This document shows positions 1-29,882 of a DNA stretch of 32,000 nucleotides, piece by piece. The translations under genes and the position numbers were made by a program. The notes under the pieces were generated by a model. It ran no database searches. It was not told the DNA's origin and worked only from the letters and a program-made list of their open reading frames with translations. Source of the DNA: Desulfobulbus propionicus DSM 2032 (lineage in GTDB: Bacteria; Desulfobacterota; Desulfobulbia; Desulfobulbales; Desulfobulbaceae); assembly GCF_000186885.1 (NCBI RefSeq), contig NC_014972.1, forward strand, positions 2,430,001 to 2,462,000, written 5' to 3'. The number at the start of each line of letters is the position of its first letter. The stretch's first letter is position 1.

Positions 1-156
1 AGGGGATGGATTAGTGGTGATGGATCGATTGTTCATTGCGGCGTTGCTCGTTGAAGTGAATGGACGGGAAAAAGTTTGTTGCCAAGATATAAGCATCGAC
101 AGCCATTGTGCAACCGCCAATGGCGTGCACGGGGCGAAGCCGCTGCCGCGACCGGG

Positions 157-4270: not shown

Positions 4271-4539
4271 GCTGCGGCAATGTCAGCCGCATGCGGAAGA
4301 CATCGTTGCCGCCGGTCCAGCACCCACCCGTCGGCTGTTCCCGGACCGTACTCGATCCCGTCCCTGTCGGCTCAACAACCGCCAGGAACGGGCCAATCGT
4401 TCTCCCTTCGCCCTGTATCCTTTTGTCCCAGCCCGGCTTTTTTCCTTTCTTGACAAGTTTCCCCCACAGGGATAAGGAAAAGGCCTTCTATCCGTTTTCC
4501 TCAATGCAATAATTTTCCCAGATGCCCCAGGAGCGCCGC

Positions 4540-4998
4540 ATGACAACGGAACAACCTGATTTGGAAAACATCCTTACCGCCTACGGCCGGGAACGGGACA
4601 ACCTCATCCCGCTGCTGCAGGAGGTACAGGACCGTTTTCGGTATCTTTCCCCAGAGGCGGTGCAGGCGGTGGCCGATCACCTCGAACTCTCGGCCAACGA
4701 CGTCTACGGCGTGGCCACCTTTTACGCTCAATTCCGTTTCGTGCCGCCCGGCCTGCACCACATCAAGGTGTGCGAGGGCACGGCCTGCCATGTGCGCGGC
4801 AGCGACCGCATTCTCGAATCCATCAGCCGCGCCACCGGCATCGCCCCTGGCCAGACCAGCAGCAATGGCCAGTTCAGCCTGGAACGGGTGGCCTGTTTCG
4901 GCTCCTGCGCCCTGGCCCCGGTGGTGGTGGTGGACGACAAGGTCTACGGTCGGATGACCGCCGCCAAAACCAACAAGCTCATTGAGGACAAGAAATGA
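4540..4998 (+). CDS. NuoE/HydC/HndA-like thioredoxin-fold [2Fe-2S] subunit
   Basis: CEGTAC (C-x4-C) and CFGSCALAP (C-x3-C) in the canonical order. Start at ATG 4540, preceded by AGGAG. ATGA overlap with the next gene at 4995-4998. Confidence 0.85.
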   Translation: MTTEQPDLENILTAYGRERDNLIPLLQEVQDRFRYLSPEAVQAVADHLELSANDVYGVATFYAQFRFVPPGLHHIKVCEGTACHVRGSDRILESISRATGIAPGQTSSNGQFSLERVACFGSCALAPVVVVDDKVYGRMTAAKTNKLIEDKK

Positions 4999-6848
4999 GT
5001 TTCGCCGCGCGACAACAACAGGCACAAATCGTCTGGCAACGTTTTGAGCAGCCGGACCGGCCCCGCATTCTCATCGGGTCGGCCACCTGCGGCCGCGCCG
5101 CCGGATCGCTGGAAGTCATGGCCGCCTTTGCCGCCGAACTGGCCAAACAGGGATTGACCGAATCCGTGGACGTGGTCGAGGTCGGCTGCCTGGGCATGTG
5201 CTATGCCGAGGTGCTGGTGGAGATCCGTGGCCGCGACGGCAAGCGGGTCCTGTACCAGAGTGTGGAGCCGCGCCATGTCGAGGCCTTGGTCGATGCCCAG
5301 CTGGTGCGGGGCGAGGTCTTTGCGCCGCTGGCCCTGGCGGTGATGAACGACACGGATGAAACCGTTCCTGCCTTCACCGACCTGCCGATGATCCAGCCCC
5401 AGGTGCGGATCGTGCTGCGCAACTGCGGCATCATCGACCCGACCAATATCGACCACTACCTGGCCCAGGGCGGCTACAGCGGCATGGCCCGCGCCTTTTC
5501 TCTGGGGCCGGAACAGGTGATCGAGGAGATGAAGGCGTCCGGCCTGCGCGGTCGCGGCGGGGCCGGTTTCCCCACCGGGGTCAAGTGGGGGTTTGCCCGC
5601 AGCTCGGTGGCGGATCAGAAATACGTGATCTGCAACGCCGACGAGGGCGATCCTGGTGCCTTCATGGACCGGTCGGTGCTGGAAGGCGACCCGCACGCGG
5701 TGCTGGAAGGGTTGCTGATCGCGGGCTATGCCATCGGCGCCACCGTGGGCTATGTCTACTGCCGGGCCGAATATCCGCTGGCCATCGAACGGTTGCAGGA
5801 CGCTATTGCCCAGATGCGCGAGCAGGGGTTCCTGGGCGCGAACATTCTCGGTTCGGGTTTTGATTTCGACATCAAGATCAAGAAGGGGGCCGGCGCCTTT
5901 GTCTGCGGCGAGGAGACCTCGCTGATGCAGTCCATCGAGGGCAAGCGCGGCATGCCGCTCTCCAAGCCGCCCTTTCCGGCGGTGTCCGGCCTGTTCGGCA
6001 AACCGACCAATATCAACAATGTCGAGACGCTGGCGGCGGTATCGGCGATCATGGAGAAGGGCGCGGCCTGGTATGCCGGGTTCGGCACCGAAAAGAGCCG
6101 GGGCACCAAGACCTTTGCCCTGGCCGGCAAGATCACCCGCACCGGCTTGATCGAGGTGCCCATGGGCATCCGCTTGCGCACCATCATCGACGAGGTCGGC
6201 GGCGGCGTGCTCGGCGGCAAGCCCTTCAAGGCGGTGCAGACCGGTGGGCCGTCGGGCGGCTGCATCCCGGCCCAGTTCATCGACCTGGAGGTCGATTACG
6301 AACACCTGGCTTCGGTCGGCTCGATCATGGGCTCGGGCGGCATGATCGTCATCGATGCGGAATCGTGCATGGTCGACATGGCCCGCTACTTCCTCACTTT
6401 CACCGAGAACGAGAGCTGCGGCAAGTGCGTGCCCTGCCGCATGGGCACCCAGCACTTGCTGCGCATTCTCACCGGCATCACCCAAGGCAAGGGGACGTTG
6501 GATCAGTTGGATACGCTGCGCAAGATCGGCGACACCATGAAGAGCGCCTCTCTGTGCGGCTTGGGGCAAACAGCGGCCAACCCGGTGCTGACCACGCTCC
6601 AGTATTTCGAGGAGGAGTACCGGGCCCACATCGAGGACCACAAGTGCCCGGCCGGTGCCTGCCGCGCCCTGATCCGCTTCGACATCGATCCGGCCCGTTG
6701 TACCGGCTGCGGCGCCTGTCTGCGCGCCTGTCCGGTGGCGGCGATCAGCGGCGAGAAGAAACAGCCGCACGCTATCGACCAGCAGCTGTGCATCCAGTGC
6801 GGTTCCTGCCGCCAGGCCTGCAAGTTCGAGGCGGTGCTGGTGGATTAA
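4995..6848 (+). CDS. NuoF/HydB/HndC-like FMN- and NADH-binding subunit with extra Fe-S domains
   Basis: GLRGRGGAGFPTGVKW, CNADEGDPGAFMDR and ESCGKCVPCRMG (N3-type 4Fe-4S). N-terminal thioredoxin-like domain (TCGRAAG...GCLGMCYAE). C-terminal 2x CxxCxxCxxxC(P) ferredoxin motifs. Confidence 0.9.
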   Translation: MSFAARQQQAQIVWQRFEQPDRPRILIGSATCGRAAGSLEVMAAFAAELAKQGLTESVDVVEVGCLGMCYAEVLVEIRGRDGKRVLYQSVEPRHVEALVDAQLVRGEVFAPLALAVMNDTDETVPAFTDLPMIQPQVRIVLRNCGIIDPTNIDHYLAQGGYSGMARAFSLGPEQVIEEMKASGLRGRGGAGFPTGVKWGFARSSVADQKYVICNADEGDPGAFMDRSVLEGDPHAVLEGLLIAGYAIGATVGYVYCRAEYPLAIERLQDAIAQMREQGFLGANILGSGFDFDIKIKKGAGAFVCGEETSLMQSIEGKRGMPLSKPPFPAVSGLFGKPTNINNVETLAAVSAIMEKGAAWYAGFGTEKSRGTKTFALAGKITRTGLIEVPMGIRLRTIIDEVGGGVLGGKPFKAVQTGGPSGGCIPAQFIDLEVDYEHLASVGSIMGSGGMIVIDAESCMVDMARYFLTFTENESCGKCVPCRMGTQHLLRILTGITQGKGTLDQLDTLRKIGDTMKSASLCGLGQTAANPVLTTLQYFEEEYRAHIEDHKCPAGACRALIRFDIDPARCTGCGACLRACPVAAISGEKKQPHAIDQQLCIQCGSCRQACKFEAVLVD

Positions 6849-6899
6849 CGGCCAGGCAAGCGGAGCATTGGAGCCAAGTTTTTTTCATAAGGAGAGTGC

Positions 6900-9404
6900 A
6901 TGGGCAGCATCAGTTTGACCATTGACGGCCGCATGGTCGAGGTCGAGAAAGGGACCACGGTCCTCCAGGCCGCCCGCCAGGCGGGCATCACCATCCCCAC
7001 CATCTGCGACCACAAGGACCTCAACCCTTACGGCGCCTGCCGGATGTGCATCGTCGAGATCGAGGGCGTGCGCGGGTATCCCACCTCCTGCACCACCCCG
7101 GCCACCCCGGGCATGCAGGTGACCACCCAATCGGAGCGGTTGACCGAACTTCGCAATCGCACCCTGGAGTTGATGTTTTCCGGCCATCCCAACAGCTGCC
7201 TGGTCTGTCCCCACCGCGAGGCCTGCGAGCAGTACCGGCCCAAGGCCACCAAGGCAGCCCGCTCCACCCGCTGCGGTTTCTGCGCCAACCGCGACGAATG
7301 CGACCTGCGCGCCATGGCCCTGCGGGCGGGCAGCCGGGAGTTACACCTGCCCACCCTCTATGCGTCCTACAACCTGGAGCGGGACGACCCCTTCATGGAC
7401 CGGGACTACAACCTGTGCGTGCTCTGCGGCCGTTGCTGGCGCATCTGCGAGAAGATCCATGGCCAGCCCGCCATCTCGATCATCAACCGGGGCAAGTGGG
7501 CCCGCATCGGCACCGCCTTTGACACCAGCCACGTCCACTCCGGTTGCACCTTCTGCGGCGCCTGTATCGACATCTGTCCCACCGGCACCCTCACCGACCG
7601 CTTCGCCCGCTGGCACGGCAAGCCCGAGCTGGAAATGCCCTCGACCTGTCTGCTCTGTAGCGAAGGCTGTTCGGTGGTGGCGCAGAGCAAGGAAGGACAA
7701 CTGCTGGCCTACACCATGACCGGATTCAACCGCGAATCCGGCCTCTGTGCCCTGGGGCGCTTCGGCGCGGCCCAGATCGTCAACTCCAACCAGCGACTGA
7801 TTCGGCCCCTGGTGCGGGAGGGCGAGGACCTGATCCCCTATGATTGGGAAGGGGCCATCCAGGCCGCGGCCGACGGCTTGCGCGGCTGCGTGGGGACGAC
7901 TGCGCTGGTGATCAGCGCCACCACCTCGCGCGAGGACCGGTTCCTCTATGCCCAGCTGGCCAGCCATCTGCAGGCTCCGCTGGTGCTCCTCGACGCTGCC
8001 GCCGATGGCGAGGATCCGGCTGTCCAACAGATCGCCCAGGACTTGAAGAACGGCACCCTGCGGGCCATCATCACCAACGGCAACCTCCTGCCCCTGGAGG
8101 CCATCCGGGCCGCTGGCTTTTCGCTGGTGATCGACTGTCTGCCCTCGCCGCTGTCCGAGGCGGCCAGCGTGGTCCTGCCGGCGGCGGTACTCAGCGAGAT
8201 TGAAGGCACCTTCCGCACTGCCGGCGGCGCCATCAAGACCATGGCCGCCTCCAGCCAGGCGCCGGGCCATGCCCTGCCGGAGCGGCAGATTCTCTGTTCG
8301 CTCGGTCAGGCCCTGGGCAGTGGCGAGTTCGATTTCGCCAGTGCCGCCAACGTCACGCCGCTGATCGTCGACGACCCGGCGCCACCGCAGGTCAAAGGCC
8401 ATCCCCGCGATCAGGTCCGCGACCTGCTGCCCCGCTTCCGTGGTCATCTGCTCGCCGACATTGTCCCGGCCCTGGCCGCCTTCGGCCTGCCCGCCACCCC
8501 TGCCGTACCGACCTTGGAGGTGTGCCCAGCCGGAGGTTTCGCCCTGCTGGAGAAACGGGAAATCGTGCCCAATATGCATTTCTTCAAGATCCGGGCGCCC
8601 CAGGTGGCCAAGTTCGCCCTGCCCGGCCAGTTCGTTATCCTCATGGCCAAGGAGACCTCGGAGCGTTCGCCCTTTACCCTGGTGGATTGGGACGCGAGTG
8701 AGGGTTGGATCTCGCTGGTGATTGAGGAGGTCGGCCGTTCCAGCCGTGAACTGGCCTCGCTCAAGGCCGGCGACTGTATCGCCCATGTCAGCGGCCCGCT
8801 GGGGCTGCCGTTGCCCATTGAGAACAAGGGCACGGTGCTGCTTGGCGGTGGCTGCTACGGCATCGGCGCCATCTTCCCCCTGGCCCGGGCCCTGCGTCAG
8901 GCCGGCAACCGGGTGATCTGCGCCATCGAGGCCTCCTCTTCCTATCTGCTCTACCGCCAGGAGGAGCTGCGCACGGTCTGCGACGAGTTGCTCCTGGCCA
9001 CCAAGGACGGCAGCGAAGGTGTGCAGGGTGGCGTTCAGGAGCTGTTGGCCCAGGCGGTCGCGCGCGAGCCGATCAATCAGTTCATCGCCATCGGCTGCAC
9101 CTTCATGATGCGCATGGTCACCGAGATCAGCCGGTCGCTCAATATCCCCACCCTGGTGGCGCTCAACCCGATCATGGTCGACGGCACCGGCATGTGCGGC
9201 GCCTGTCGCGTTTCCGTGGGCGAGAAAACACAGTTTGCCTGCGTGGATGGTCCGATCTTTGATGGCCACAGCGTGGACTGGGATGAGCTGGCCTCGCGGC
9301 GCAGCGCCTATGCCCGCCAGGAGGTGCAGGCCCTGTCGCAGAGTGTGGATCTGAACGCGCTGGTGCTGCCGTCCCAGGGCGGTGGCTGCGGCTGCGGCCG
9401 ATAA
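6900..9404 (+). CDS. Fusion protein: NuoG/HydA-N-like Fe-S module + short molybdopterin-oxidoreductase-like remnant + NfnA (NfnS)-like FAD/NAD(P) reductase domain
   Basis: N-terminal 2Fe-2S (CDHKDLNPYGACRMC). HPNSCLVCPHREAC (H-x3-C-x2-C-x5-C). Two ferredoxin-type clusters (CVLCGRCWRIC, CTFCGACIDICP). MopB-type CLLCSEGC...C. From ~nt 8535 (aa ~545): FFKIRAP...PGQFVIL...RSPFTL...GGGCYGIGAIFP...NPIMVDGTGMCGACRVSVG..FACVDGPIFDG, colinear with NfnA/PyrK-type reductases. AAGGAG SD before ATG 6900. Confidence 0.85.
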   Translation: MGSISLTIDGRMVEVEKGTTVLQAARQAGITIPTICDHKDLNPYGACRMCIVEIEGVRGYPTSCTTPATPGMQVTTQSERLTELRNRTLELMFSGHPNSCLVCPHREACEQYRPKATKAARSTRCGFCANRDECDLRAMALRAGSRELHLPTLYASYNLERDDPFMDRDYNLCVLCGRCWRICEKIHGQPAISIINRGKWARIGTAFDTSHVHSGCTFCGACIDICPTGTLTDRFARWHGKPELEMPSTCLLCSEGCSVVAQSKEGQLLAYTMTGFNRESGLCALGRFGAAQIVNSNQRLIRPLVREGEDLIPYDWEGAIQAAADGLRGCVGTTALVISATTSREDRFLYAQLASHLQAPLVLLDAAADGEDPAVQQIAQDLKNGTLRAIITNGNLLPLEAIRAAGFSLVIDCLPSPLSEAASVVLPAAVLSEIEGTFRTAGGAIKTMAASSQAPGHALPERQILCSLGQALGSGEFDFASAANVTPLIVDDPAPPQVKGHPRDQVRDLLPRFRGHLLADIVPALAAFGLPATPAVPTLEVCPAGGFALLEKREIVPNMHFFKIRAPQVAKFALPGQFVILMAKETSERSPFTLVDWDASEGWISLVIEEVGRSSRELASLKAGDCIAHVSGPLGLPLPIENKGTVLLGGGCYGIGAIFPLARALRQAGNRVICAIEASSSYLLYRQEELRTVCDELLLATKDGSEGVQGGVQELLAQAVAREPINQFIAIGCTFMMRMVTEISRSLNIPTLVALNPIMVDGTGMCGACRVSVGEKTQFACVDGPIFDGHSVDWDELASRRSAYARQEVQALSQSVDLNALVLPSQGGGCGCGR

Positions 9405-9441
9405 TTCGAGTGAATCGAGTGATTTTGCGGAGTATGCAAGC

Positions 9442-10890
9442 ATGACAACCAACGAACCCATGGCCGAGCAAGCAGCAACCCCCAAGAAAGGCAAGGCAAA
9501 GACCCCGCGCCAACCCATGCCCGAGCAGGACCCTCGCCGTCGCCGCTACAACTTCGAGGAGGTGCCCCGCGGCTACAGCGAGGAAACCGCCATGCTCGAG
9601 GCCTCGCGCTGCATCCAGTGCAAGAAGCCAGGCTGCGTCGAAGGCTGTCCGGTCAACATCCACATCCCGGCCTTCATTAAGCTGATTGCCGAAGGAAAAT
9701 TCATCGACGCCCTGCTCAAACTGAAAGAACAGACGGCCCTACCGGCGGTCTGCGGCCGGGTCTGCCCGCAGGAAAGCCAGTGCGAGGCGCGCTGCATCCT
9801 GGGCAAGAAGGGTGAGCCGGTGGCCATCGGCCGCCTGGAACGGTTTGCCGCCGATTACGCCCGCAAGCACGGCGGCGTGCCGGAGCCGGTCAAGGCCGCA
9901 GCCACGGGCAAACGGGTGGCGATTGTCGGCGCCGGGCCGGCCGGGATCACCGTGGCTGGCGAGCTGGCCCGCTGGGGCCACGAGGTGGTGATGTTCGAGG
10001 CCCTGCACCTGGCCGGCGGCGTGCTGATGTACGGCATTCCCCAGTTTCGTTTGCCCAAGGAGATCGTCCAGTTCGAGATCAACAGCCTCAAGCGGCTGGG
10101 CGTCACCATCCACACCGACTACGTGATCGGCAAGTCCGAGACCGTGGGCCAGTTGATGGAGCAGGGCTTTGACGCGGTGTTCATCGCCACCGGCGCCGGT
10201 CTGCCGGTGTTTCTTGGCATTCCCGGCGAGAATGCCATCGGCGTTTTCTCGGCCAACGAGTTTCTCACCCGCGCCAACCTAATGCGGGCCATCGATTTTC
10301 CCCGCTTTGCCACCTCGCCCATCCGCCCCCACCGAGCGGTGACCGTGGGCGGCGGCAACGTGGCCATGGACGCGGCCCGCACCGCCCTGCGGTTAGGTGC
10401 GGAATCGACCATCGTTTACCGCCGTTCCAAGGCGGAGATGCCGGCCCGCGCCGAAGAAGTCCATCATGCCGAGGAGGAGGGCGTGGTCTTCCACCTGCTC
10501 ACCAATCCGGTACGGATCGTCACCGATGCGCGCAACCGGGTGACCGGCGTCGAATGTCTGCGCATGGAACTGGGCGAACCCGATGCCTCGGGCCGGCGGC
10601 GACCGGTGGCGGTCAAGGGCAGTGAATTCATTGTCCCGGCCGACACGGTGATCGTGGCCATCGGCAACCAGCCCAATCCCCTGGTGCCGCAGACCGCGCC
10701 CGAAATCGAGACCTCCAAGCGGGGCACCATCACCGCCGATCCAGTCACCATGATGACCTCCAAGCCCGGCGTCTTTGCCGGCGGCGACATCGTCTCCGGC
10801 GCGGCCACGGTGATCAGCGCCATGGGCCAGGGCAAGACCGCGGCCCTGCACATCCATCGCTACCTCATGGGCGGCGACCCGCCCCGATGA
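9442..10890 (+). CDS. nfnB: NfnB / GltD-like NAD(P)H-dependent oxidoreductase (two [4Fe-4S] + FAD)
   Basis: RCIQCKKPGCVEGCPV...CGRVCPQESQCEARC followed by VAIVGAGPAGITVAGELA, GGVLMYGIPQFRLPK and FAGGD. Start set at ATG 9442, downstream of the preceding stop at 9404; the ORF-track start at 9382 overlaps that gene. Confidence 0.9.
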   Translation: MTTNEPMAEQAATPKKGKAKTPRQPMPEQDPRRRRYNFEEVPRGYSEETAMLEASRCIQCKKPGCVEGCPVNIHIPAFIKLIAEGKFIDALLKLKEQTALPAVCGRVCPQESQCEARCILGKKGEPVAIGRLERFAADYARKHGGVPEPVKAAATGKRVAIVGAGPAGITVAGELARWGHEVVMFEALHLAGGVLMYGIPQFRLPKEIVQFEINSLKRLGVTIHTDYVIGKSETVGQLMEQGFDAVFIATGAGLPVFLGIPGENAIGVFSANEFLTRANLMRAIDFPRFATSPIRPHRAVTVGGGNVAMDAARTALRLGAESTIVYRRSKAEMPARAEEVHHAEEEGVVFHLLTNPVRIVTDARNRVTGVECLRMELGEPDASGRRRPVAVKGSEFIVPADTVIVAIGNQPNPLVPQTAPEIETSKRGTITADPVTMMTSKPGVFAGGDIVSGAATVISAMGQGKTAALHIHRYLMGGDPPR

Positions 10891-10898
10891 ACGGGCAT

Positions 10899-10925
10899 GG
10901 GCGGCATCCAACCAGGCTGCCGCCC
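10899..10925 (+). terminator. Candidate terminator hairpin after nfnB-like gene
   Basis: GGGCGGCA-tccaaccaggc-TGCCGCCC (8-bp perfect stem) begins 9 nt after the stop. The downstream tract GTCGTCCTCTTGTTCG is only moderately T-rich. Confidence 0.35.
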
Positions 10926-10967
10926 GTCGTCCTCTTGTTCGCCCTTCCCTGTAGCAAACCGAAAACG

Positions 10968-18914: not shown

Positions 18915-19418
18915 TCACCCCTGGCTGCCGACCGTTTTGTCCATGAACACCAGCTCAACCTTCGGCCCGGCCTGCTGCCGTCGCCGCATCTGGTAACCGA
19001 GCTGGCGGTACAGCCGGATGTTGTCGGTACTGCGGCTGCCGGTGAACAGCTCGAACCGGGCCGCGGAGGTGCATTGGGCCTCGATGGCCCGCATCAGGGC
19101 AGAGCCGATCCCTTGACAGCGGACCTCGGGATGGACGATCAACCGGCCGATGCACCAGATCTCCTGCTCCTGACGGGCACGCACCGAGCCGACCAGCTGG
19201 CCGCTTAGGGTTGCCTTGAGCACCAGGCTGGCGGCGAATTCCCGTTGCAGTTCCTCGAGGGTCTGCACCAGGGGCGGCAGGGCCCAGTCGTCATACAGCT
19301 CGGCCTCGGTCCGGAAGGCAAGCCGCTGCAGGGCAAGAATGGTTGCGCAATCGGCCACGGTGGCCGGTTCGATGACCAGGGAATTGCGACTGACTGAGTG
19401 ATTGTCCGCGTCCATCAT
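18915..19418 (-). CDS. GNAT-family N-acetyltransferase
   Basis: LIVHPEVRCQGIGSALM (the Q/RxxGxG/A acetyl-CoA motif) in a ~165-aa GNAT-sized protein. ATGA overlap with the upstream ATPase stop at 19415-19418. Confidence 0.8.
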   Translation of the reverse strand: MMDADNHSVSRNSLVIEPATVADCATILALQRLAFRTEAELYDDWALPPLVQTLEELQREFAASLVLKATLSGQLVGSVRARQEQEIWCIGRLIVHPEVRCQGIGSALMRAIEAQCTSAARFELFTGSRSTDNIRLYRQLGYQMRRRQQAGPKVELVFMDKTVGSQG

Positions 19419-21313
19419 CGCTCCTCCCGAAAAAAGCCGATACTCGCCGACGAGAGCACCACCAGCACCGAGCCGACGTTGTGGACCACCGCGCCCATGA
19501 TCGGAGTGAGCAAGCCAAAGGCCCCAGCCAGCACGGCAACGAGATTGAACACCAGGCCAAAGGCGAGGTTGAGCTTGATGATCAGCAGCATTCGCCGTCC
19601 CAGGGCGATGAGCAAGGGCAGCTTGCCGATGTCGTCGCCCATGAGGGCAATATCGGCGGTCTCCAGGGCCACTTCGGTGCCCCTGGCGCCCATGGCGATG
19701 CCGGTGTTGGCGATGGCCAGGGCCGGGGCGTCGTTGATGCCGTCGCCAACAAAGATCACCCGGGCGTTGTGCTGTTGCATGTCACGGATAATGGCCAGCT
19801 TGTCGTCGGGTTTCAGGCCGGACCAGCGGCGGGTAACGCCCACCTCCTGGCCGACCAGATCCACCGAGTGCTGATGATCGCCGGAAAGGATACCGATTTC
19901 CCGCAACCCCACCTGCTTGAGCGCGGCCACGGTCCGGCCGGCCCCGCCGCGTACCCGGTCGGAGACGCTGAGCATGCCCAGCGGCTGTTGGTCACGGTAG
20001 ACCAGCAGTGGCGTGGCGCCGCGCTGTTGGATGGCGCTCAGCTGCGGCTGCAGAGCCGCAGGCACGGCGGCCAGCCCGCCGTAGAGAGAGACGCTGCCGA
20101 CCTCGACCAGACGGCCATCGACCCGGCCGCGCACGCCGAGGCCGATCTCGGTGAACAGATCGCGGGCCGCGTCGATGGTGATTTGGGCATAAAGGGCCGC
20201 CTGCATCACGGCCCGGGCCAGGGGGTGGGAGGCGTTGCACTCGACGCTGGCCGCTTGGTGGAGCAGTTCGTCGCGGTCAATGCCCTCGGCCGGGATGATC
20301 GCGTCGACCCGTGGATTGCCTTCGGTGAGGGTGCCGGTCTTGTCAAAGAGGATGGTGTCGGCTAGGGCCACGTTTTCGATGTGCTGGCCGCCTTTGACCA
20401 GGATGCCGGCGCGGGCCGCCCGCCCGATGGCCGCCACCGTGGCCGTGGGCACGGCCAGGATCAGGGCGCAGGGGCAACCGACGATTAGTACCGCCACCGC
20501 CCGGCCGAACTCACCGGTGACGATCCAGGCCAACAGGGCACAGCCCAGGATCAGCGGCGTGAAGAAACGGGCAAAGCGGTCGATGAAGGCGACGGTCTGC
20601 GGCTTGTGGGTTTCGGCCTCGGCAACCAGCTGGATCACCCGGCCCAGGGTGGTATCGGCGCCGACCTTGTCCGCCCGGATCCGGAGCACGCCGTTGTGGT
20701 TGAGGGTGCCAGCAAAGACCGTATCGCCCACCCCTTTCTCCCGGGGCAAGGGTTCACCGGTGACGGCCGATTCGTCGATGGCCGAGCTGCCCTCGATCAC
20801 CTGGCCATCCACCGGCACCTGGTCGCCGGGTTTGACCAGGAGGAGATCGCCCGCGCAGACCGCCTCGATCGGGACCAGCTGTTCCCGCCCCTCCCTGAGC
20901 ACCAGGGCCTTTTTCGGCGCCACCTGGATCAGGGCCTGAATCGAGCGACGCGCCGATTCGGCGGTGGCTTCCTCGATCAGGGCACCCAGTACCATGATGG
21001 TGCTGACCACGGCAGCGGTGAGCAGCTCGCCGTTGAGCAGGCAGGCGATGATGGCCAGGGCCAGTAGCTCGTCGACATTGACCCGCCGTTCCAACAACCC
21101 CCGAACCGCGCCGACGATCACCGGCAGGCCGTTGATGGCCACCGAGGCAAGGATCAACCCCTGACTGATCAAGGTTTGCCGGTGAAATTCAGGCACATAA
21201 CGGCCAAGGAGAAACCCGGCCAAGGCCAGCAGCGCACCGCAGCCCACCTTGATGAAATCTCTGCTCTGCAGCAGTTCCTCGTAGACGCCCAGTTTGGTGA
21301 AACGACCTATCAT
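19415..21313 (-). CDS. P1B-type heavy-metal-translocating ATPase lacking an N-terminal HMA metal-binding domain
   Basis: TGEP, CPCAL (TM6 CPC), DKTGTLT and GDGINDAPAL. No CxxC HMA domain before the first TM helix. AAGGAG before ATG 21313. Metal specificity is not assignable by eye. Confidence 0.9.
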   Translation of the reverse strand: MIGRFTKLGVYEELLQSRDFIKVGCGALLALAGFLLGRYVPEFHRQTLISQGLILASVAINGLPVIVGAVRGLLERRVNVDELLALAIIACLLNGELLTAAVVSTIMVLGALIEEATAESARRSIQALIQVAPKKALVLREGREQLVPIEAVCAGDLLLVKPGDQVPVDGQVIEGSSAIDESAVTGEPLPREKGVGDTVFAGTLNHNGVLRIRADKVGADTTLGRVIQLVAEAETHKPQTVAFIDRFARFFTPLILGCALLAWIVTGEFGRAVAVLIVGCPCALILAVPTATVAAIGRAARAGILVKGGQHIENVALADTILFDKTGTLTEGNPRVDAIIPAEGIDRDELLHQAASVECNASHPLARAVMQAALYAQITIDAARDLFTEIGLGVRGRVDGRLVEVGSVSLYGGLAAVPAALQPQLSAIQQRGATPLLVYRDQQPLGMLSVSDRVRGGAGRTVAALKQVGLREIGILSGDHQHSVDLVGQEVGVTRRWSGLKPDDKLAIIRDMQQHNARVIFVGDGINDAPALAIANTGIAMGARGTEVALETADIALMGDDIGKLPLLIALGRRMLLIIKLNLAFGLVFNLVAVLAGAFGLLTPIMGAVVHNVGSVLVVLSSASIGFFREER

Positions 21314-21704: not shown

Positions 21705-21765
21705 TCAGCTAGACCTGTATAGCTGCCGCAAACAGATCGTGCAAGGCTTTTCTTACGATCCTTTT

Positions 21766-21788
21766 TCGCGAGCATGGCTCGCTCCTAC
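21766..21788 (-). repeat. REP-like palindromic element, copy A
   Basis: Minus-strand read GTAGGAGCGAGCCATGCTCGCGA, with an internal 6-bp stem GCGAGC/GCTCGC. Confidence 0.6.
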
Positions 21789-21814
21789 CCAGCATGGACA
21801 AAATTCCTGGGAGT

Positions 21815-21837
21815 GTAGGAGCAGGCCATGCCTGCGA
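21815..21837 (+). repeat. REP-like palindromic element, copy B (inverted relative to copy A)
   Basis: GTAGGAGCAGGCCATGCCTGCGA. 19 of 23 positions are identical to copy A. The 4 differences form two compensatory pairs that preserve the stem (GCAGGC/GCCTGC). Confidence 0.6.
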
Positions 21838-21871
21838 TATGAATCTGGAGAGCATCCCACCATCGCCAGGT

Positions 21872-22146
21872 TCAGCCCTCCAGGGAGGCGATAAAATCGG
21901 CCGCATCATCAAGCAGCGCCGCGAACACCATTTCCAGGGCGCTGTCGAACAACTGCTGATCATGCGCTTCGCTGAGACTGTTGCCTCGATGGCCAGCGAA
22001 CCGTGGATGGTGCGGATGCGGTTGATGCGTCGCAGCGTTCTGGCCTGGTCGGCAAGCATGGTCAACCGTCCAATGGCTTCGCTGATCGCGGCGACCCGGT
22101 TCAAAATCTCCGGGGTGATGGTGTAGGGCGGCTGGTAGTCAGTCAT
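21872..22146 (-). pseudogene. Fic-family protein, N-terminal fragment only (frameshifted and truncated)
   Basis: MTDYQPPYTITPEILNRVAAISEAIGRL...LRRINRIRTIHGSLAIE matches Fic N-terminal regions. The expected continuation GNSLSEA is in another frame. No HxFx(D/E)GNGR Fic motif follows. Confidence 0.55.
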
Positions 22147-23178
22147 TGCCCCCTCCAGTTCGCGCTCGATCTGCTCGATGGTCGGTAGGCTGGTCTGTAA
22201 AGGTTCGGGTAGCGATTCCAGCAGCTTGTATTCGGCGATCCCCATGGGCTGGGTCTTGTCGCCCAAGGCATATTCGGCCACTACCTTGTTCTTGCTCTTG
22301 CACAGCAGCAGGCCGATGCTGGGGTTATCCTGTTCGGCCTTCACTTGACGGTCCACAGCGGTGAGATAGAAACCCAACTGCCCAAGATGTTCCGGTTTGA
22401 ACTTGTCTGCTTTGAGTTCAATCACCACATAGCAGCGCAGTTTGAGGTGGTAAAAGAGCAGGTCGATGAAAAAATCATCGCCACCGACTTCCAGATGCAC
22501 TTGCCGCCCGACAAGGGCAAATCCCGCACCCAGTTCCAGCAAGAATTGGGTGATGTGCCTGACCAGTGCCGATTCAATTGCGCGCTCGTCCGGCCTCTTT
22601 GCCCACATCGAGAAAATCGAACAGGTAGGGGTCTTTGAGCGATTCCCGAGCCAGATCACTGCCCCGTGCGGGCAACCGTTCGGCGAAGTTGGTCACGGCC
22701 TTGCCGGTGCGTTCGAGCAGTCGGGTTTCGATGTGAATATTCAGCACATTGCGACCAGCTTGTGTTCAATGGCGGCCCGGGCATAGGCAAGGCGTTGTTC
22801 CGGTTGCTTCAGCCGGGTCAGCAGCACCAGGTTATGCCCCCAGGGTAATTGTCCAACAGCCTGTTGGACAATTTGCTCTTCCGGCCAGGCCTCGGTAAAG
22901 GCACGCATATACATGAGCTTAGCACGGGAAAAGCCTTTCATGTCGGGAAAGGCGGTGCGCAGATCATGGGCCAGCCGGTCAATGACCTTGGCGCCCCAGC
23001 CCTGCTCGGCTTGCCGGATCAGAATATCACGGCCGATCTGCCAGTAAAGCGTTACCAGTTCGCGGTTGACCGCCAGAGTTGCCCGTTGCTGGGCGGTATG
23101 GATGCGGTTTTTCAGTTCCGCCAGCCAGTTGGCGTAGCCTTCAGGTGGGTGGATCAGGGAGACGGGCTTGTCGTTCAT
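22147..23178 (-). pseudogene. DUF1016 (YhcG-like PD-(D/E)XK nuclease) gene disrupted by frameshifts
   Basis: The N-terminal 145 aa (22741-23178) and the C-terminal nuclease core (ERAIESALV...GFALVGRQVHLEVGGDDFFIDLLFYH..LRCYVVIELK) lie in different frames. The connecting segment (NVLNIHIETRLLERTGKAVTNF...DPYLFDFLDVGKEA) is in a third frame. Shifts are near 22745 and 22590. Confidence 0.7.
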
Positions 23179-24643: not shown

Positions 24644-25228
24644 TCACCGACCGTTCGGAGCACCTTGTTCTTCTGTGAACAACCGATAGGTCCGGTGGCC
24701 ATCGTCGTCCCCGGTCCGGGCGGCAATCCACAACAGCACCACCATGACCACGCACCAGCTCACGCCAATCTGCACCAGACAACGGAGCATGTCCGGGCCG
24801 AACGCAGCCGCACCCAATCGTACCCCAGCCCCGTAGGCCAAGGCTCCGGATACACCACCAAGCACGGCAGCCAGCAGATACCGTCCGGCAAGCCAGGCCA
24901 GCGCATAGTGCAGCGTCATGGCGAACTGCAGCCACAGCACCAGGATCCAGGGCGGCGGCACGGCCGGATGCAGGCTGCCGATGGGAAAGAACAGCACGCC
25001 GGTGCCGATATGAAGGCTATCAACCAGCAGGCCGAGCAGCCCGCTTGCACCCAGCAGCAGCGCTTCGCGGCCGGGTTGCCGAACCAGGGCCAGATGCGCC
25101 AGCACCAAGGCACTTCCGGCCAGGGTGGCTGGCCAGGGAAAGCCGGCGGCGGCACCCAGGACGCACACCATCCAGCCGCCCTGGAACAGAGCGAAGTTGA
25201 TCAGCTTGGTCCAGGCCTGGCCGCTCAC
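24644..25228 (-). CDS. DUF2878-like integral membrane protein
   Basis: About 5 TM helices. N-terminus KLINFALFQGGWMVCVLG resembles DUF2878 proteins, which co-occur with CFA-synthase-like genes. GTG start at 25228 forms a GTGA overlap with the upstream stop. Confidence 0.6.
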   Translation of the reverse strand: MSGQAWTKLINFALFQGGWMVCVLGAAAGFPWPATLAGSALVLAHLALVRQPGREALLLGASGLLGLLVDSLHIGTGVLFFPIGSLHPAVPPPWILVLWLQFAMTLHYALAWLAGRYLLAAVLGGVSGALAYGAGVRLGAAAFGPDMLRCLVQIGVSWCVVMVVLLWIAARTGDDDGHRTYRLFTEEQGAPNGR

Positions 25229-27204
25229 CTGCTGCCCGGCTCCGGCGCTGCCTCGCCCATGCGGGAGAGCACCAGATGATAGTTGCGCACCAACCGGGTG
25301 CGGAAACCCGCCTCGCAGTAGCTGAAATAGTACTCCCATTGGCGCAGGAACCGTTCGTCAAAGCCAAGATCCAACACCCGCTGCCGCTGGGCACGCAGGG
25401 CCTCCCGCCACAGTTCCAGGGTGCGGACATAGTGGAGGCCGATATCCTCCAGGCTGGTGATGTTGAACCGGGTGGTGCGGGCCATGGCCTCGACCAGGGC
25501 ACCCAACGAGGGCAGATGGCCGCCGGGAAAGATGTGCTTGCGGATCCAGTCCGAACCCAGGCGGTAGGAACGGTATTTCTGGTCGGGCATGGTGATCGCC
25601 TGCAGCACAACCCGTCCGCCGGGCAGAAGCAGACGATCGAGTTCAGCGAAATAGCGGGGCAGATGCCGGTGGCCCACGGCCTCGATCATCTCGATGGAGA
25701 CAATGGCGCTGAACTGTCCCTGCACATGGCGATAATCGGTCAGCTGCACCTCGATCCGGTCGTCCAGGCCCTCTTCACGCACCCGCCGGCTGACCCAGTC
25801 GTACTGTTCACGGGAGACGGTGATGGCCAGCAGATGGCAGCCGGTGGCGCGTACCGCCTCCAGGGCAAAACCGCCCCAGCCGCAGCCGATTTCCAACACC
25901 CGATCGTCCGGGCCGATCCCGGCCAGTTCCAGCACCCGGCGGATCTTGTGGTGCTGCGCCTGTTCCAGGCTGTCGTGTTCGTCCACAAACAGACCGCTGG
26001 AATAACACATGGTCGGATCGAGGAACAGGGCGTAGAGTTCGTTGCCAAGGTCATAATGGGCACTGATGTTGCGCCGGCTGCCGGCCGGGGTGTTGTCCCG
26101 CCGGAGATGAAGAAGGAAATTCACCGCCCGTCCGGCCAGGGCCGGCCACAAGCGCCGGTCATTGACCGCCTCTTCCCGCAGGCAGAGCAGAGTCAGCAGG
26201 GCCGCCAGATCCGGACTGTCCCAGTCACCCTCCACATAGGATTCACCAAAGCCGATGTCCGCGGCGAGCATGGCCCGCTGAAAAAAGCGGTGGCGATGGA
26301 CGGTCATCGCCACCTGCGGCGTGCCCTCCAAGGTGCCAAAGACATGCTGCTGACCGTCCGGGGTGGTCAGGGTCATCTGGCCGTGATCGAGCTGGGCAAA
26401 AAAACGGGTCATCACCCGTTTCCCTAGCCGTTCCAGCAGCGAGGGCGGCACGGGGCGAATGGTCAAGGGCGAGCAGGGATCGGGTTTGGCAAAGACCGGC
26501 AATCGCTTCTGCAGATACAGGCGGGCTGCCTGCCAGAGAATGCGGGGAAAGGTCATGCCTGCCCGCAGCGGATGGAGCAGCACGGTGCGGGCCATGATCT
26601 GGGACGTCAGGGGGCTGGCGGTTCCGGTGAACGAGGCCCGCAGGGCCAACTGGTCGTCAAGAAAATAGCTGATCTCAAGCGACAGGCTGTCCCCCGGTTC
26701 GGAGAGGCGGAACTGGTAGCGTCCCCGGCGCGGGAAAAACGGAGAGACGTGAAAGGCCTTGTCGGCCTGAAAGGATTGACCGTCCTCCTCGGGTGTGAGC
26801 AGGTAGAGATGGGTTTCGCCAAAGGTGTTGTTGACCTGGGCGAGCACGGCAAAGAGCCTGTTGGTCGCATCGTAACAGTAGAAGAAGTTGACCGGGTTGA
26901 ACACGTACAGAAACTGGCGCAGCGCGGTGACCAGGACGATGCGGCCGGGGATCTGGTCCATGCCGTTGTCGCGCAGGGCCCGCCGCACCTTGTCGACCAG
27001 GGGCGACTCACCCGGATACAGGTAGTCGCGATCAAAGAGGGCCAACGGCCGCGGTCGGTTATGACCAAACCAGCTGGACTGCTGCTCCAACCGGTCGAGC
27101 TCGTCCAGATCCAGGGCGTACAGATGGAGGAGATAGGCAAAACTGTGTTCGACCGCATGGGTGCGGGCGTGGCGCAGTTGCCCGGTATAGAGTGTGGAGT
27201 TCAC
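25225..27204 (-). CDS. Fusion: DUF1365 domain + cyclopropane-fatty-acyl-phospholipid-synthase-like SAM methyltransferase
   Basis: N-terminal ~240 aa: LYTGQLRHAR...F.Y.L.LYALDLDEL...FNPVNFFYCYD...FHVSPF (DUF1365). C-terminal ~400 aa: NISAHYDLGNELY, VLEIGCGWGGFA, SIEMIEAVGH, IFPGG.LPS and WEYYFSYCEAGF (CFA-synthase family). GTG start forms a GTGA overlap at 27201-27204. Confidence 0.85.
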   Translation of the reverse strand: MNSTLYTGQLRHARTHAVEHSFAYLLHLYALDLDELDRLEQQSSWFGHNRPRPLALFDRDYLYPGESPLVDKVRRALRDNGMDQIPGRIVLVTALRQFLYVFNPVNFFYCYDATNRLFAVLAQVNNTFGETHLYLLTPEEDGQSFQADKAFHVSPFFPRRGRYQFRLSEPGDSLSLEISYFLDDQLALRASFTGTASPLTSQIMARTVLLHPLRAGMTFPRILWQAARLYLQKRLPVFAKPDPCSPLTIRPVPPSLLERLGKRVMTRFFAQLDHGQMTLTTPDGQQHVFGTLEGTPQVAMTVHRHRFFQRAMLAADIGFGESYVEGDWDSPDLAALLTLLCLREEAVNDRRLWPALAGRAVNFLLHLRRDNTPAGSRRNISAHYDLGNELYALFLDPTMCYSSGLFVDEHDSLEQAQHHKIRRVLELAGIGPDDRVLEIGCGWGGFALEAVRATGCHLLAITVSREQYDWVSRRVREEGLDDRIEVQLTDYRHVQGQFSAIVSIEMIEAVGHRHLPRYFAELDRLLLPGGRVVLQAITMPDQKYRSYRLGSDWIRKHIFPGGHLPSLGALVEAMARTTRFNITSLEDIGLHYVRTLELWREALRAQRQRVLDLGFDERFLRQWEYYFSYCEAGFRTRLVRNYHLVLSRMGEAAPEPGSR

Positions 27205-29291: not shown

Positions 29292-29321
29292 GTGCAGGTC
29301 TCCGTTGGTAGCGAAGCTGTT

Positions 29322-29732
29322 CTATGTCGCCAGCCGCAGGCCGATCAGGTAGGCCGCGCCGCTGACCAGGGTGCAGAGGATCGTGCCCCAGGCCATGTCG
29401 ACCACGGTGACCAGCAGCGGCCAGTCGCGCAGAGTGGCCAGGTTGGTCAGATCGTAGGTGCCGTAGGTAAAAAAACCAAAGAGCGCGCCCAGTAGGCAGG
29501 CCTTGGCCAGGGAATGGGCTTCAAGTGCGGGACGAACCGCAAAAAAGAGGATACCGGCGATGTAAAAGCCGTAAAAGAGCAAGGCGGCCGGCCAGTTGAC
29601 CTGCGGGCTGAGCAGCGCATGGAGCTGCTGTTTGTAGAAATTTCTTGCCACCACGCCGAGCCAGAGCATGTCGATGGCAAAGAACACGGGGACGGTCAAC
29701 AGGTACAGCTTCAACCACAGTGAGCCGTTCAT
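29322..29732 (-). CDS. DUF2177-like small membrane protein
   Basis: FAIDMLWLGVVARNFYKQQL and TYDLTNLATLRDWP are characteristic of DUF2177. Four TM helices. Start at ATG 29732 with a GGAGAG SD. Confidence 0.7.
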   Translation of the reverse strand: MNGSLWLKLYLLTVPVFFAIDMLWLGVVARNFYKQQLHALLSPQVNWPAALLFYGFYIAGILFFAVRPALEAHSLAKACLLGALFGFFTYGTYDLTNLATLRDWPLLVTVVDMAWGTILCTLVSGAAYLIGLRLAT

Positions 29733-29882
29733 AGGCGTACTCTCCAGTGCATGAAGATCTGATGTCGCGTTCAGGTAGACCGTGATCAAGCAAGGGGAGC
29801 TCTACACCCCTGCCACTCCATCTTGGCTAACGTTGGGGAAAAAAATAAGACGACCTCCGCAAAAAACAAGCAATCGGCAACG

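Follow-up and report, generated by a model that had tools for sequence, protein, structure and literature searches.

We analyzed a 32,000-nucleotide (nt) stretch of DNA from Desulfobulbus propionicus DSM 2032 (contig NC_014972.1, positions 2,430,001 to 2,462,000; below, the window, whose own numbering we use) and found a set of four genes that brings together the parts of two kinds of electron-bifurcating enzymes. The products of the first two genes resemble the core subunits BfuC and BfuB of the Bfu family. The third is a NuoG-like (BfuA-like) iron-sulfur (Fe-S) protein fused to NfnS (also called NfnA), and the fourth resembles NfnL (NfnB). The genes are as follows.

4540-4998 (+): gene 1, NuoE/HydC/BfuC-type thioredoxin-like [2Fe-2S] subunit, 152 amino acids (aa).
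4995-6848 (+): gene 2, NuoF/HydB/BfuB-type subunit for flavin mononucleotide (FMN) and nicotinamide adenine dinucleotide, NAD(H), 617 aa.
6900-9404 (+): gene 3, fusion of a NuoG-like protein to NfnS, 834 aa.
9442-10890 (+): gene 4, NfnL (NfnB)/GltD-like subunit for flavin adenine dinucleotide (FAD) and NAD phosphate, NADP(H), 482 aa, with two [4Fe-4S] clusters.

Genes 1 and 2 are joined by an ATGA start/stop overlap (4995-4998). The gap between genes 2 and 3 is 51 nt and contains AAGGAG before the ATG at 6900, and the gap between genes 3 and 4 is 37 nt and contains GGAG before the ATG at 9442. A first-pass annotation of the window had described four same-strand genes with this overlap and these gaps, and all of them match the open reading frames and their junctions. 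Gene 1 has a second in-frame ATG upstream, at 4522; the start at 4540, with AGGAG 8 nt to its 5' side, is the choice of independent gene calls on identical contigs. The four genes lie between two regions that could hold transcription signals.

4271-4539 (+): upstream intergenic region; read by eye, it has TTGACA at 4450-4455 without a good -10 hexamer.
10893-10932 (+): GC-rich hairpin followed by UCCUCUUGUU, directly 3' of the gene 4 stop, found by eye.

The upstream region probably contains the promoter and 5' untranslated region of the operon; a promoter scan reported no consensus promoter there. RNA folding of the hairpin gave -28.9 kcal/mol (z=-3.9), and 0 of 200 shuffled sequences folded as well. 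It is a probable operon terminator, and a simple terminator scan did not call it. Terminator-like matches inside the four-gene block were no more common than in shuffled sequence, and an Rfam scan found no matches to RNA families. The layout fits a four-gene operon, because the promoter scan found no promoter-like site within the block, the hairpin follows gene 4, and a promoter-like site (TTGACA-17-TACATT) lies beyond that hairpin, ahead of the next gene.

Gene 1 matched PF01257 (E=1e-51) and the NuoE equivalog model NF005722 (148 bits; cutoff, 141), and its cysteines follow the pattern Cx4C...Cx3C. Gene 2 matched Complex1_51K (E=4e-47) and NADH_4Fe-4S (E=3e-32) and has Fer4 domains at its C-terminus. 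Its product consists of an N-terminal thioredoxin-like domain, the [4Fe-4S] motif of NuoF, a Cys/His/CPAGAC site and a C-terminal 2x[4Fe-4S] ferredoxin domain. Gene 2 aligned end to end with solved bifurcating subunits (full length to 7t2r_B), scoring 761 bits with NiFe-BfuB, 736 with StnB, 730 with Csac NfnB, 723 with Tsi NfnB and 710-634 with HydB. In contrast, the scores with non-bifurcating NuoF and FdsB were at most 431 bits.

The residues and cluster sites that separate bifurcating BfuB from its non-bifurcating homologs were set out by Schut et al. 2022 (PMC9304861; Suppl. Figs 9-10), and the motifs of gene 2 match the bifurcating set both in residues (Suppl. Fig. 10) and in cluster sites (Suppl. 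Fig. 9). Gene 2 reads VICNADEGDPGAFMDRS and KKGAGAFVCGEETSLM, which are the bifurcating-type residues of the NADH/FMN domain (DEGDPGAFMDR and GAGAFVCGEE). It also reads ESCMVD...CGKCVPC...AHIEDHKCPAGACRAL and then CTGCGACLRACP...CIQCGSCRQAC, corresponding to the C...H...CPAGAC site and the C-terminal 2x[4Fe-4S]. As judged by these motifs and scores, gene 2 is a NuoF homolog of the bifurcating (BfuB/HydB) kind. Its thioredoxin-like domain (4995-5400, residues 1-135) has only C32, C65 and C69, whereas that of NiFe-BfuB has four cysteines, the first of which aligns to a glycine in gene 2. It is possible that the [2Fe-2S] cluster of this domain is absent, is ligated in another way, or is replaced by a metal ion. 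Variation of this sort is known, as the Stn/NfnABC structures are reported to have Zn in place of the cluster at one BfuB site.

Gene 3 has two halves that we consider in turn. Its parts are as follows.

6900-8390 (+): residues 1-497, NuoG/HydA-N/BfuA-like Fe-S module.
7272-7301 (+): extra Cys triad, C125-x2-C128-x5-C134, a tandem CxxCx5C duplicate on an insert of ~25 aa after the ligand set A2.
8391-8537 (+): residues 498-546, linker with the conserved pattern PR...RFRGH..AD..PAL.AFGLP, modeled by AlphaFold2 (AF2) with moderate confidence.
8538-9404 (+): residues 547-834, NfnS (NfnA)/PyrK-like domain for FAD and [2Fe-2S].

The domain matches of gene 3 were Fer2_4, NADH-G_4Fe-4S_3, Fer4_Nqo3, a weak and truncated Molybdopterin, and DHODB_Fe-S_bind. 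The N-terminal half has five sets of cluster ligands: A1 (C36, C47, C50, C64), A2 (H96, C100, C103, C109), A3 and A4 (C173/176/179/183 and C216/219/222/226), and A5 (C250, C253, C257, C283). A truncated molybdopterin-like scaffold follows A5 and lacks the Molydop_binding (dinucleotide-binding) domain. The A1-A5 ligands were invariant across 52 homologs, and Foldseek matched this module to NuoG, FdsA and NiFe-BfuA. With the motifs of gene 1 and these ligands, the set has the BfuC, and the BfuA with A1 and A2, that a Bfu core requires.

We found that the N-terminal half also carries the extra Cys triad, which may ligate one more Fe-S cluster. The triad was invariant in the alignment of the fusion family and present in every NfnS-linked NuoG-like subunit examined. 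When the N-terminal 245 residues were used as a query, the duplicated motif was found in 144 of the 150 closest representatives of 50%-identity clusters; 8 were fused to NfnS. The Pfam NADH-G model matched twice in one long-form homolog. NiFe-BfuA is without the extra triad, its single CxxCx5C motif aligning to both copies in gene 3, and a residue-level alignment showed the matching part of Rhodobacter FdsA to be free of cysteines. We also asked whether the triad might take its fourth ligand from a Cys in the C-terminal tail of NfnS, which reads GCGCG in the window. We rejected this candidate: the tail Cys is not conserved in long or unfused forms and is also found in stand-alone NfnS.

The triad was also present in BfuA proteins that are not fused. 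In five such contexts the next gene encoded NfnS (four of five) or a plain FNR-type flavoprotein without NfnL (one of five), and we conclude that the extra triad travels with an FNR-fold flavoprotein partner. Among the four loci with NfnS, the two NfnS that were translated (L086 and L087) both carry the altered nucleotide motifs described below. A complete NfnL lies downstream in L085 and L086, and at the other two loci the contig stops inside the gene downstream of BfuA or shortly beyond it. In locus L088 (3504-9830), a 947-aa BfuA-like protein with the duplicated CxxCx5C is encoded beside NuoE and a NuoF without the C-terminal ferredoxin domain; the flavoprotein there is of the ordinary FNR type (TGVAP, CGHP) and NfnL is absent. 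L088 appears to be a simpler relative and is probably non-bifurcating.

The C-terminal half of gene 3 is a true NfnS (NfnA) domain. Residues 548-814 matched the curated NCBIfam model NF004862 (NfnS/PyrK-like) with 324 bits (cutoff, 220), the domain scored 247 bits with NfnS of Pyrococcus furiosus (Pfu; 5jca_S) and 223 with NfnA of Thermotoga maritima (Tma), and Foldseek placed its AF2 model on 5jca_S with a TM-score of 0.91. The ERxPxT motif is present as SERSPFT and is accompanied by VDGTGMCGACR...FAC. The ligands of the [2Fe-2S] cluster are D761, C766, C769 and C781 (Asp + 3 Cys), and the residues of the FAD and cluster motifs are invariant in the family.

In contrast to its FAD and cluster motifs, both nucleotide motifs of this domain are altered. 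They read GGC652YGIG (C652 at 8853-8855) and GC733TFMM (C733 at 9096-9098). The same changes, GGGxG to GGC(Y/F)G and xGPxxMM to xGCxxMM, occurred in every Bfu-linked NfnS, whether fused or separate and whether from bacteria or archaea. In stand-alone NfnS (n=49) the two positions were 98% G and 98% P and the signature was absent. Comparing the columns of Bfu-linked NfnS with those of the 49 stand-alone proteins gave four clade-specific positions, two of them in the nucleotide-binding motifs. The residue at the end of beta-2, outside the four computed positions and read from the alignment, changes from G/A to E/D in Bfu-linked NfnS (E677 in the window). In a rough neighbor-joining tree, the Bfu-linked NfnS formed one clade apart from the 49 stand-alone proteins.

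The altered glycine loop and GP sites are presumably the NAD(P)H-binding motifs of the FNR superfamily. Because both are altered in every Bfu-linked NfnS, a third pyridine-nucleotide site at NfnS is doubtful. A stand-alone relative from Pyrococcus furiosus, NfnII/Xfn, has GAYTG instead of GGGVG, so that the corresponding glycine is missing there too, and it is reported to have no NAD-dependent activity (PMC6405883). The GGC(Y/F)G and GC signature offers a simple marker that separates Bfu-linked from canonical NfnS. Genome surveys that score nfnAB matches as canonical Nfn pool at least two different enzymes.

Gene 4 matched Fer4_20 (E=5e-43), Pyr_redox_2 (E=2e-37) and TIGR01316 (579 bits; cutoff, 472). 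It has SRCIQCKKPGCVEGCPV, GRVCPQESQCEARC, YGIPQFRLPK and VYRRSKAEMPAR, and its motifs include RCx2Cx4Cx3CPV, GRVCPQExQCx3C, the FRLP arginine (at FAD N5) and the YRR motif for the NADP phosphate; the cluster motifs are among those listed for NfnL in PMC6405883. The product scored 528 bits with Tma NfnB (4ylf_B), 485 with Pfu NfnL, 365 with Tsi Nfn-Bfu NfnA and 285 with StnC. These matches indicate that gene 4 is a canonical NfnL, closer to Tma NfnB than to the GltD domains of the Stn type. At the thresholds used, there were no family-specific substitutions relative to stand-alone NfnL that would mark a new docking surface. A rough neighbor-joining tree did not cleanly separate the Bfu-linked NfnL, and we make no claim that NfnL was co-inherited.

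Annotation of the four proteins with domain models bears out all of the assignments made in the first pass: genes 1 and 2 as NuoE and NuoF of the HydC/HydB type (Pfam and NCBIfam matches and the scores relative to solved structures), the start of gene 3 as NuoG/HydA-N-like (Pfam matches, the ligand sets and Foldseek), the C-terminus of gene 3 as NfnA-like (NF004862, well above its cutoff), and gene 4 as NfnB (NfnL)/GltD-like (TIGR01316 and the score with Tma NfnB). The description of a complete NfnA domain was overstated: the FAD and [2Fe-2S] motifs are there and the curated model matches, but both NAD(P)H-binding motifs are altered.

The fusion and the gene order proved to be widely conserved. 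More than 120 clusters (90% identity) of full-length BfuA-NfnS fusions were found, with identities of 54-100%. Carriers include the isolates Desulfogranum japonicum and several Desulfonatronum and metagenome-assembled genomes (MAGs) of Desulfobulbaceae, Phycisphaerales and Omnitrophica; the databases annotate these homologs only as sulfide/dihydroorotate dehydrogenase-like FAD/NAD-binding protein. The window itself is ~80-90% identical to loci in MAGs of Desulfobulbus and Desulfobulbaceae. We surveyed synteny by scanning one genome per species and then by tblastn with the four window proteins. The order NuoE, NuoF, NuoG-NfnS fusion, NfnL was found in Desulfobacterota, Opitutales, Hydrogenedentota, Planctomycetota and Nitrospirales. 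With NuoG and NfnS either fused or adjacent and separate, the order was found in at least 9 phyla (Desulfobacterota, Verrucomicrobiota, Planctomycetota, Hydrogenedentota, Nitrospirota, Aminicenantes, Elusimicrobiota, Bacteroidota and Bacillota).

In Aminicenantes, Bacteroidales, Eubacteriales, Desulfocapsaceae, Elusimicrobiota and Methanothrix, the set has a full-length NuoG/FdhA-like subunit of ~780-870 aa. At those of these loci whose open reading frames were checked, NfnS is a separate gene that often overlaps the NuoG-like gene by a few bases. Phycisphaerales have a short NuoG-like gene (539 aa) split from nfnS. Because the two parts of gene 3 are fused in some lineages and adjacent in others, their products appear to work together.

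This conservation bears on the possibility that the locus encodes two independent enzymes that are adjacent by chance, a BfuABC-like NADH:ferredoxin enzyme and an ordinary NfnSL, or that the third substrate is something other than NADP(H), such as a disulfide or polysulfide that would be reduced at C652/C733. Sulfide dehydrogenase is a frequent annotation of NfnSL homologs and was the activity first assayed for them, the two cysteines lie at the nucleotide site of the NfnS flavin, and one NfnS-NfnL pair with the Bfu signature (L032) has no Bfu genes within 8 kb. However, a covalent fusion joins BfuA to NfnS in the window and in the clusters counted above, adjacency is kept across phyla with co-occurring signatures in both partners, the NADP(H) motifs of NfnL are intact, and many of the carriers are non-sulfur organisms. 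We regard either form of this explanation as very unlikely.

Several loci in the survey had further genes or rearrangements. At L010 (4790-7909), L009 and L012 (two Planctomycetota of the Phycisphaerales type and one Hydrogenedentota), a GltD-like module replaces the C-terminal 2x[4Fe-4S] of BfuB. The resulting fusion (Fer4_20 + Pyr_redox_2) is 1039 aa, and the usual NfnS and NfnL are also encoded. As read from these genes, the complex would carry two GltD-type flavins and lack an obvious ferredoxin site on BfuB, and the family thus explores still more complex multi-flavin designs. In two Bacteroidales loci, L028 (13574-15865, -) and L030 (9866-12163, -), a canonical stand-alone nfnS-nfnL pair (GGGVG, GP) lies just downstream of the Bfu-linked cluster, on the opposite strand. 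This suggests that the hybrid is not a simple duplicate of the Nfn reaction.

Other loci recall named Bfu types or have further genes upstream. At L019 (5618-11274; a Methanothrix harundinacea MAG), L038 and L079, the order is NuoE, NuoF, full-length NuoG and an NfnS-like gene. In Methanothrix, the NfnS-like gene has the GGCFG and GC signature and the Cys motif of the NuoG-like gene is duplicated; an 'F420-Bfu', perhaps this cluster, was predicted in Methanosaetaceae by Schut et al. 2022 (PMC9304861). At L084 (122-8049), genes of the pyruvate:ferredoxin oxidoreductase type (TPP_enzyme_C/POR, Fer4) lie directly upstream of a NuoE-NuoF-NuoG-NfnS cluster whose next gene is cut off, and NfnS and NfnL may thus also be present in some of the clusters that have been classed as 'Por-Bfu'. 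At L086 (1525-3634; GCA_000405845.1), a HydA-like gene (Fe_hyd_lg_C + FeS, 432 aa) and a gene for a DRTGG/HATPase protein precede NuoE-NuoF-NuoG-NfnS-NfnL; these upstream genes resemble sensory-hydrogenase regulatory modules.

Based on the domain content and its conservation, we infer that the products of the four genes assemble into a single soluble Fe-S complex with several flavins, a member of the Bfu family, in which a BfuA wire would join a BfuBC core to an NfnSL module for the third substrate, with NADP(H) at NfnL. Our confidence in this is a little better than even. BfuC (gene 1) and BfuB (gene 2) would form the bifurcating core, with NAD(H) at the FMN and ferredoxin at the C-terminal clusters. 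The N-terminal half of gene 3 would link this core to the third-substrate module, formed by the C-terminal half of gene 3 and gene 4, with NADP(H) at the FAD of NfnL. We assign this role to NfnSL because of the modular logic of the Bfu family. By net class the complex would be a ferredoxin- and NAD(H)-coupled NADP(H) oxidoreductase (a transhydrogenase), a third architecture beside NfnSL and Stn/NfnABC.

We propose that the flavin of NfnS no longer uses an NAD(H) site of its own and would exchange electrons with the BfuA chain near the extra triad beside A2. The NfnS flavin is the proposed contact point because NfnS is the fused partner, its pocket has two cysteines, and a candidate cluster site lies beside the side-branch A2. 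The 'high-potential' branch of NfnSL would thus be joined to the 'third-substrate' branch of Bfu. NAD(H) would be handled only at the FMN of BfuB, giving two pyridine-nucleotide sites, and on the motifs the BfuB FMN and the NfnL FAD are the only secure ones. The first-pass annotation had predicted two candidate bifurcating flavins and up to three nucleotide sites. Both flavins stand as candidates, and the third site was an overstatement given the altered NfnS motifs. Its proposal that NfnSL is linked to NuoEF through a NuoG-like chain gains support from the conserved fusion, the adjacent fission variants and the lineage-specific changes in both partners.

NfnL keeps all of the features of a bifurcating L-FAD, so the complex would have two bifurcation-competent centers coupled in series. 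In a more specific form, the L-FAD of NfnL and the FMN/Fe-S 'flavobicluster' of BfuBC would be coupled through a new Fe-S site made up of the C125/C128/C134 triad and the NfnS pocket (C652/C733). We offer this form tentatively, as it may well not hold. If the coupling in series is true, the enzyme would be a 'geared' transhydrogenase, with a ferredoxin (Fd):NADH:NADPH ratio of 6:1:4 or 2:3:4 depending on which branch of NfnSL is wired, versus 2:1:2 for Nfn and Stn, and NADPH or an acceptor could be held at potentials that neither enzyme reaches alone.

Several observations weigh against the proposed complex with its wiring through NfnS. The putative extra cluster has three conserved Cys, the tail Cys being unconserved as a fourth ligand, and the AF2 model of gene 3 has low confidence over the Fe-S region (residues 100-240). 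Acidic side chains in the position of E677, which ends beta-2, are classically linked to NAD specificity, and this residue would be compatible with an NAD(H) site in NfnS that is retained in altered form. Canonical nfnSL genes lie beside the Bfu-linked cluster in L028 and L030. Lastly, if the NfnS branch is wired to BfuA and both centers bifurcate, we calculate a net reaction of 6 Fd(red) + NADH -> 4 NADPH from the physiological potentials that Schut et al. quote (E' near -380/-280/-500 mV). This is exergonic only towards NADPH and looks wasteful.

The arithmetic differs if the distal [4Fe-4S] of NfnL feeds BfuA, as in Stn, with A5 on the truncated molybdopterin-like platform as one possible entry point. 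NfnS would keep a modified NAD(H) site, the L-FAD would bifurcate NADPH, and the low-potential electron would be bifurcated again at BfuBC. This is essentially the three-site picture of the first-pass annotation. The net reaction would be 4 NADPH -> 3 NADH + 2 Fd(red), pushing an acceptor far below -500 mV (in principle to near -680 mV). There are precedents for its parts: the two GltD-type clusters wire into the NuoG-like chain in Stn/NfnABC (PMC10482914), and Bam-Bfu was proposed with two bifurcating modules in series (Schut et al., PMC9304861). A5 and the scaffold are invariant in the family, and the acidic E677 could serve NAD specificity. In contrast, no member keeps the FNR-type GxGxxP and GP motifs of NfnS unchanged, BfuA is fused to NfnS and not to NfnL, the extra triad co-occurs with an FNR-fold partner even without NfnL (L088), and NfnL shows no family-specific change that would mark a new docking surface. 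We consider this wiring unlikely.

It is also conceivable that both exits of the L-FAD, through NfnS and through the clusters of NfnL, converge on BfuA and that only BfuBC bifurcates. NfnSL would then act purely as an NADPH dehydrogenase with two exits, and the net reaction would be the ordinary one of Nfn/Stn, 2 NADPH + NAD+ + 2 Fd(ox) -> 2 NADP+ + NADH + 2 Fd(red), or 2:1:2. BfuA has two sites at which docking is conceivable (A5 and the extra triad near A2), the scheme fits the unifying view in which BfuA merely feeds electrons of a third substrate to BfuBC, and in our arithmetic it is the best balanced thermodynamically. However, it short-circuits a flavin that keeps every feature of bifurcation, and it would make the hybrid and the canonical nfnSL beside the cluster in L028 and L030 redundant with each other. 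We judge it quite unlikely, and return to the complex wired through NfnS as the reading that we favor.

The rest of the window gave no functional hint. The neighbors of the operon (P-type ATPases, nitroreductase, SLT, TerC, Macro, hydantoinase and a cyclopropane-fatty-acid-synthase cluster) are functionally unrelated. Upstream of the operon, a nitroreductase is fused to a 2x[4Fe-4S] ferredoxin domain (157-1020, -), and two P-type ATPase genes flank the region at 1-36 (-) and 19415-21313 (-). No link between these genes and the operon was found. At 21709-23178 (-), a YhcG/DUF1016 PD-(D/E)XK nuclease appears to be split into two open reading frames, DUF1016_N (145 aa) and YhcG_C (316 aa), with 81 nt between them, and the GC content around it is lower (0.57-0.59 over 21-24 kb); the split gene may be a disrupted gene or the remnant of a mobile element. 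A cluster of the lipid-modification type (24644-29789, -) encodes DUF2878, a fusion of DUF1365 to cyclopropane-fatty-acid synthase (659 aa), a fusion of DUF1295 to an amine-oxidase-like flavoprotein (696 aa), and DUF2177.

We compared this system with those described in the literature. Bifurcation of the NuoF type and of the NfnB type are considered independently evolved groups (Buckel and Thauer). Stn has no homolog of NfnA, and Nfn has no homolog of HydBC (Kumar et al. 2023, PMC10482914). Of the twelve Bfu activities given by Schut et al. 2022 (PMC9304861; Suppl. Table 1), none involves NfnSL, and 17 BfuB clades have no assignment there. Liang et al. (PMC6405883) describe four Nfn architectures, none with a NuoG fusion. 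The contrast drawn in the first-pass annotation, that NfnAB is a stand-alone enzyme and that enzymes of the Stn type have no NfnA subunit, is correct by these accounts. A full-text search of the literature, with subscription-only papers outside its scope, found no published description of a NuoG-NfnS fusion or of a cluster of Bfu with NfnSL; this is absence of evidence and not proof. It agrees with the earlier statement that the architecture has no characterized representative, as far as the searchable literature goes.

Two types of bifurcation that have been treated as independent inventions, and as mutually exclusive solutions to redox balancing, thus sit together in one conserved and widespread gene set, whose carriers include sulfate reducers, Planctomycetota, Bacteroidota, Aminicenantes and Methanothrix. 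The parts are familiar and the Bfu family is modular; yet a conserved joining of two bifurcating systems, with signatures that match in both partners, was not to be expected and can be tested directly. It provides a natural test case for whether two bifurcating centers can work in series, how an FNR-fold flavoprotein can be rewired from a nucleotide to an Fe-S chain, and whether Nfn-type enzymes come in different stoichiometric 'gears'. The hybrid may correspond to some of the BfuB clades without a function, or may be the 'third, so far unknown' transhydrogenase that Kremp et al. called for.

Among the known systems, Stn/NfnABC (Sporomusa ovata StnABC, 8OH5; Caldicellulosiruptor NfnABC, 9BOV; Thermococcus sibiricus NfnABC, 9N5U) share with the window a BfuBC-type core, a NuoG-like Fe-S wire, and a FAD/NADP(H) module of the GltD/NfnL fold with two [4Fe-4S]. 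In Stn, the GltD domain is inserted in the NuoG-like polypeptide and there is no NfnS (PMC10482914), whereas in the window NfnL is separate and NfnS is fused to BfuA. The NfnL of the window is also closer to true NfnB (528 versus 285-365 bits), and its BfuA has the extra Cys triad. Gene 3 thus lacks the GltD domain, and has the NfnS domain, by which Stn is defined in the opposite sense.

NfnSL of Thermotoga maritima (4YLF) and NfnI of Pyrococcus furiosus (5JCA) share with the window the FAD, the [2Fe-2S] with Asp + 3 Cys, the two [4Fe-4S], the N5 arginine and YRR. They are stand-alone, whereas NfnS in the window is fused to BfuA and co-encoded with BfuBC, and its NAD(P)H motifs are altered (GGC[Y/F]G, GC, E/D). 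That is, the motifs of NfnL and the FAD and [2Fe-2S] motifs of NfnS are those of NfnSL, but the NAD(H)-binding motifs and the stand-alone organization are not. Pfu NfnII/Xfn (5VJ7) is, like the NfnS of the window, from an NfnSL paralog with a divergent nucleotide domain in the small subunit, and it is reported to need an unidentified partner or acceptor. Unlike the window, it is stand-alone, keeps the GP motif, and has neither a Bfu partner nor the Cys pair.

The NiFe-Bfu enzyme HydABCSL (7T2R) has the closest solved BfuB (761 bits); its BfuA is fed by separate subunits and has a single CxxCx5C. NfnSL is the third module in none of the other Bfu types listed. Bam-Bfu is a precedent for joining Bfu to a second bifurcating module, HdrA, and is itself still a proposal only. 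The formate dehydrogenase FdsABG (Rhodobacter capsulatus, 6TG9) is the best sequence match to the N-terminal 350 residues of gene 3 (A1-A5; 192 bits) and has NuoE/NuoF-like partners. Unlike the window, it is non-bifurcating, its FdsB is without the extra clusters, its Mo-pterin catalytic domain is complete, and it has neither the extra triad nor NfnSL. The window has the sequence features of a Bfu core, with three of the usual four Cys in the thioredoxin-like domain of BfuB, but departs from NfnSL in its NAD-binding motifs and organization and from Stn in its GltD and NfnS domains. We would therefore place the system of the window as a variant within the Bfu family, a member of neither NfnSL nor Stn.

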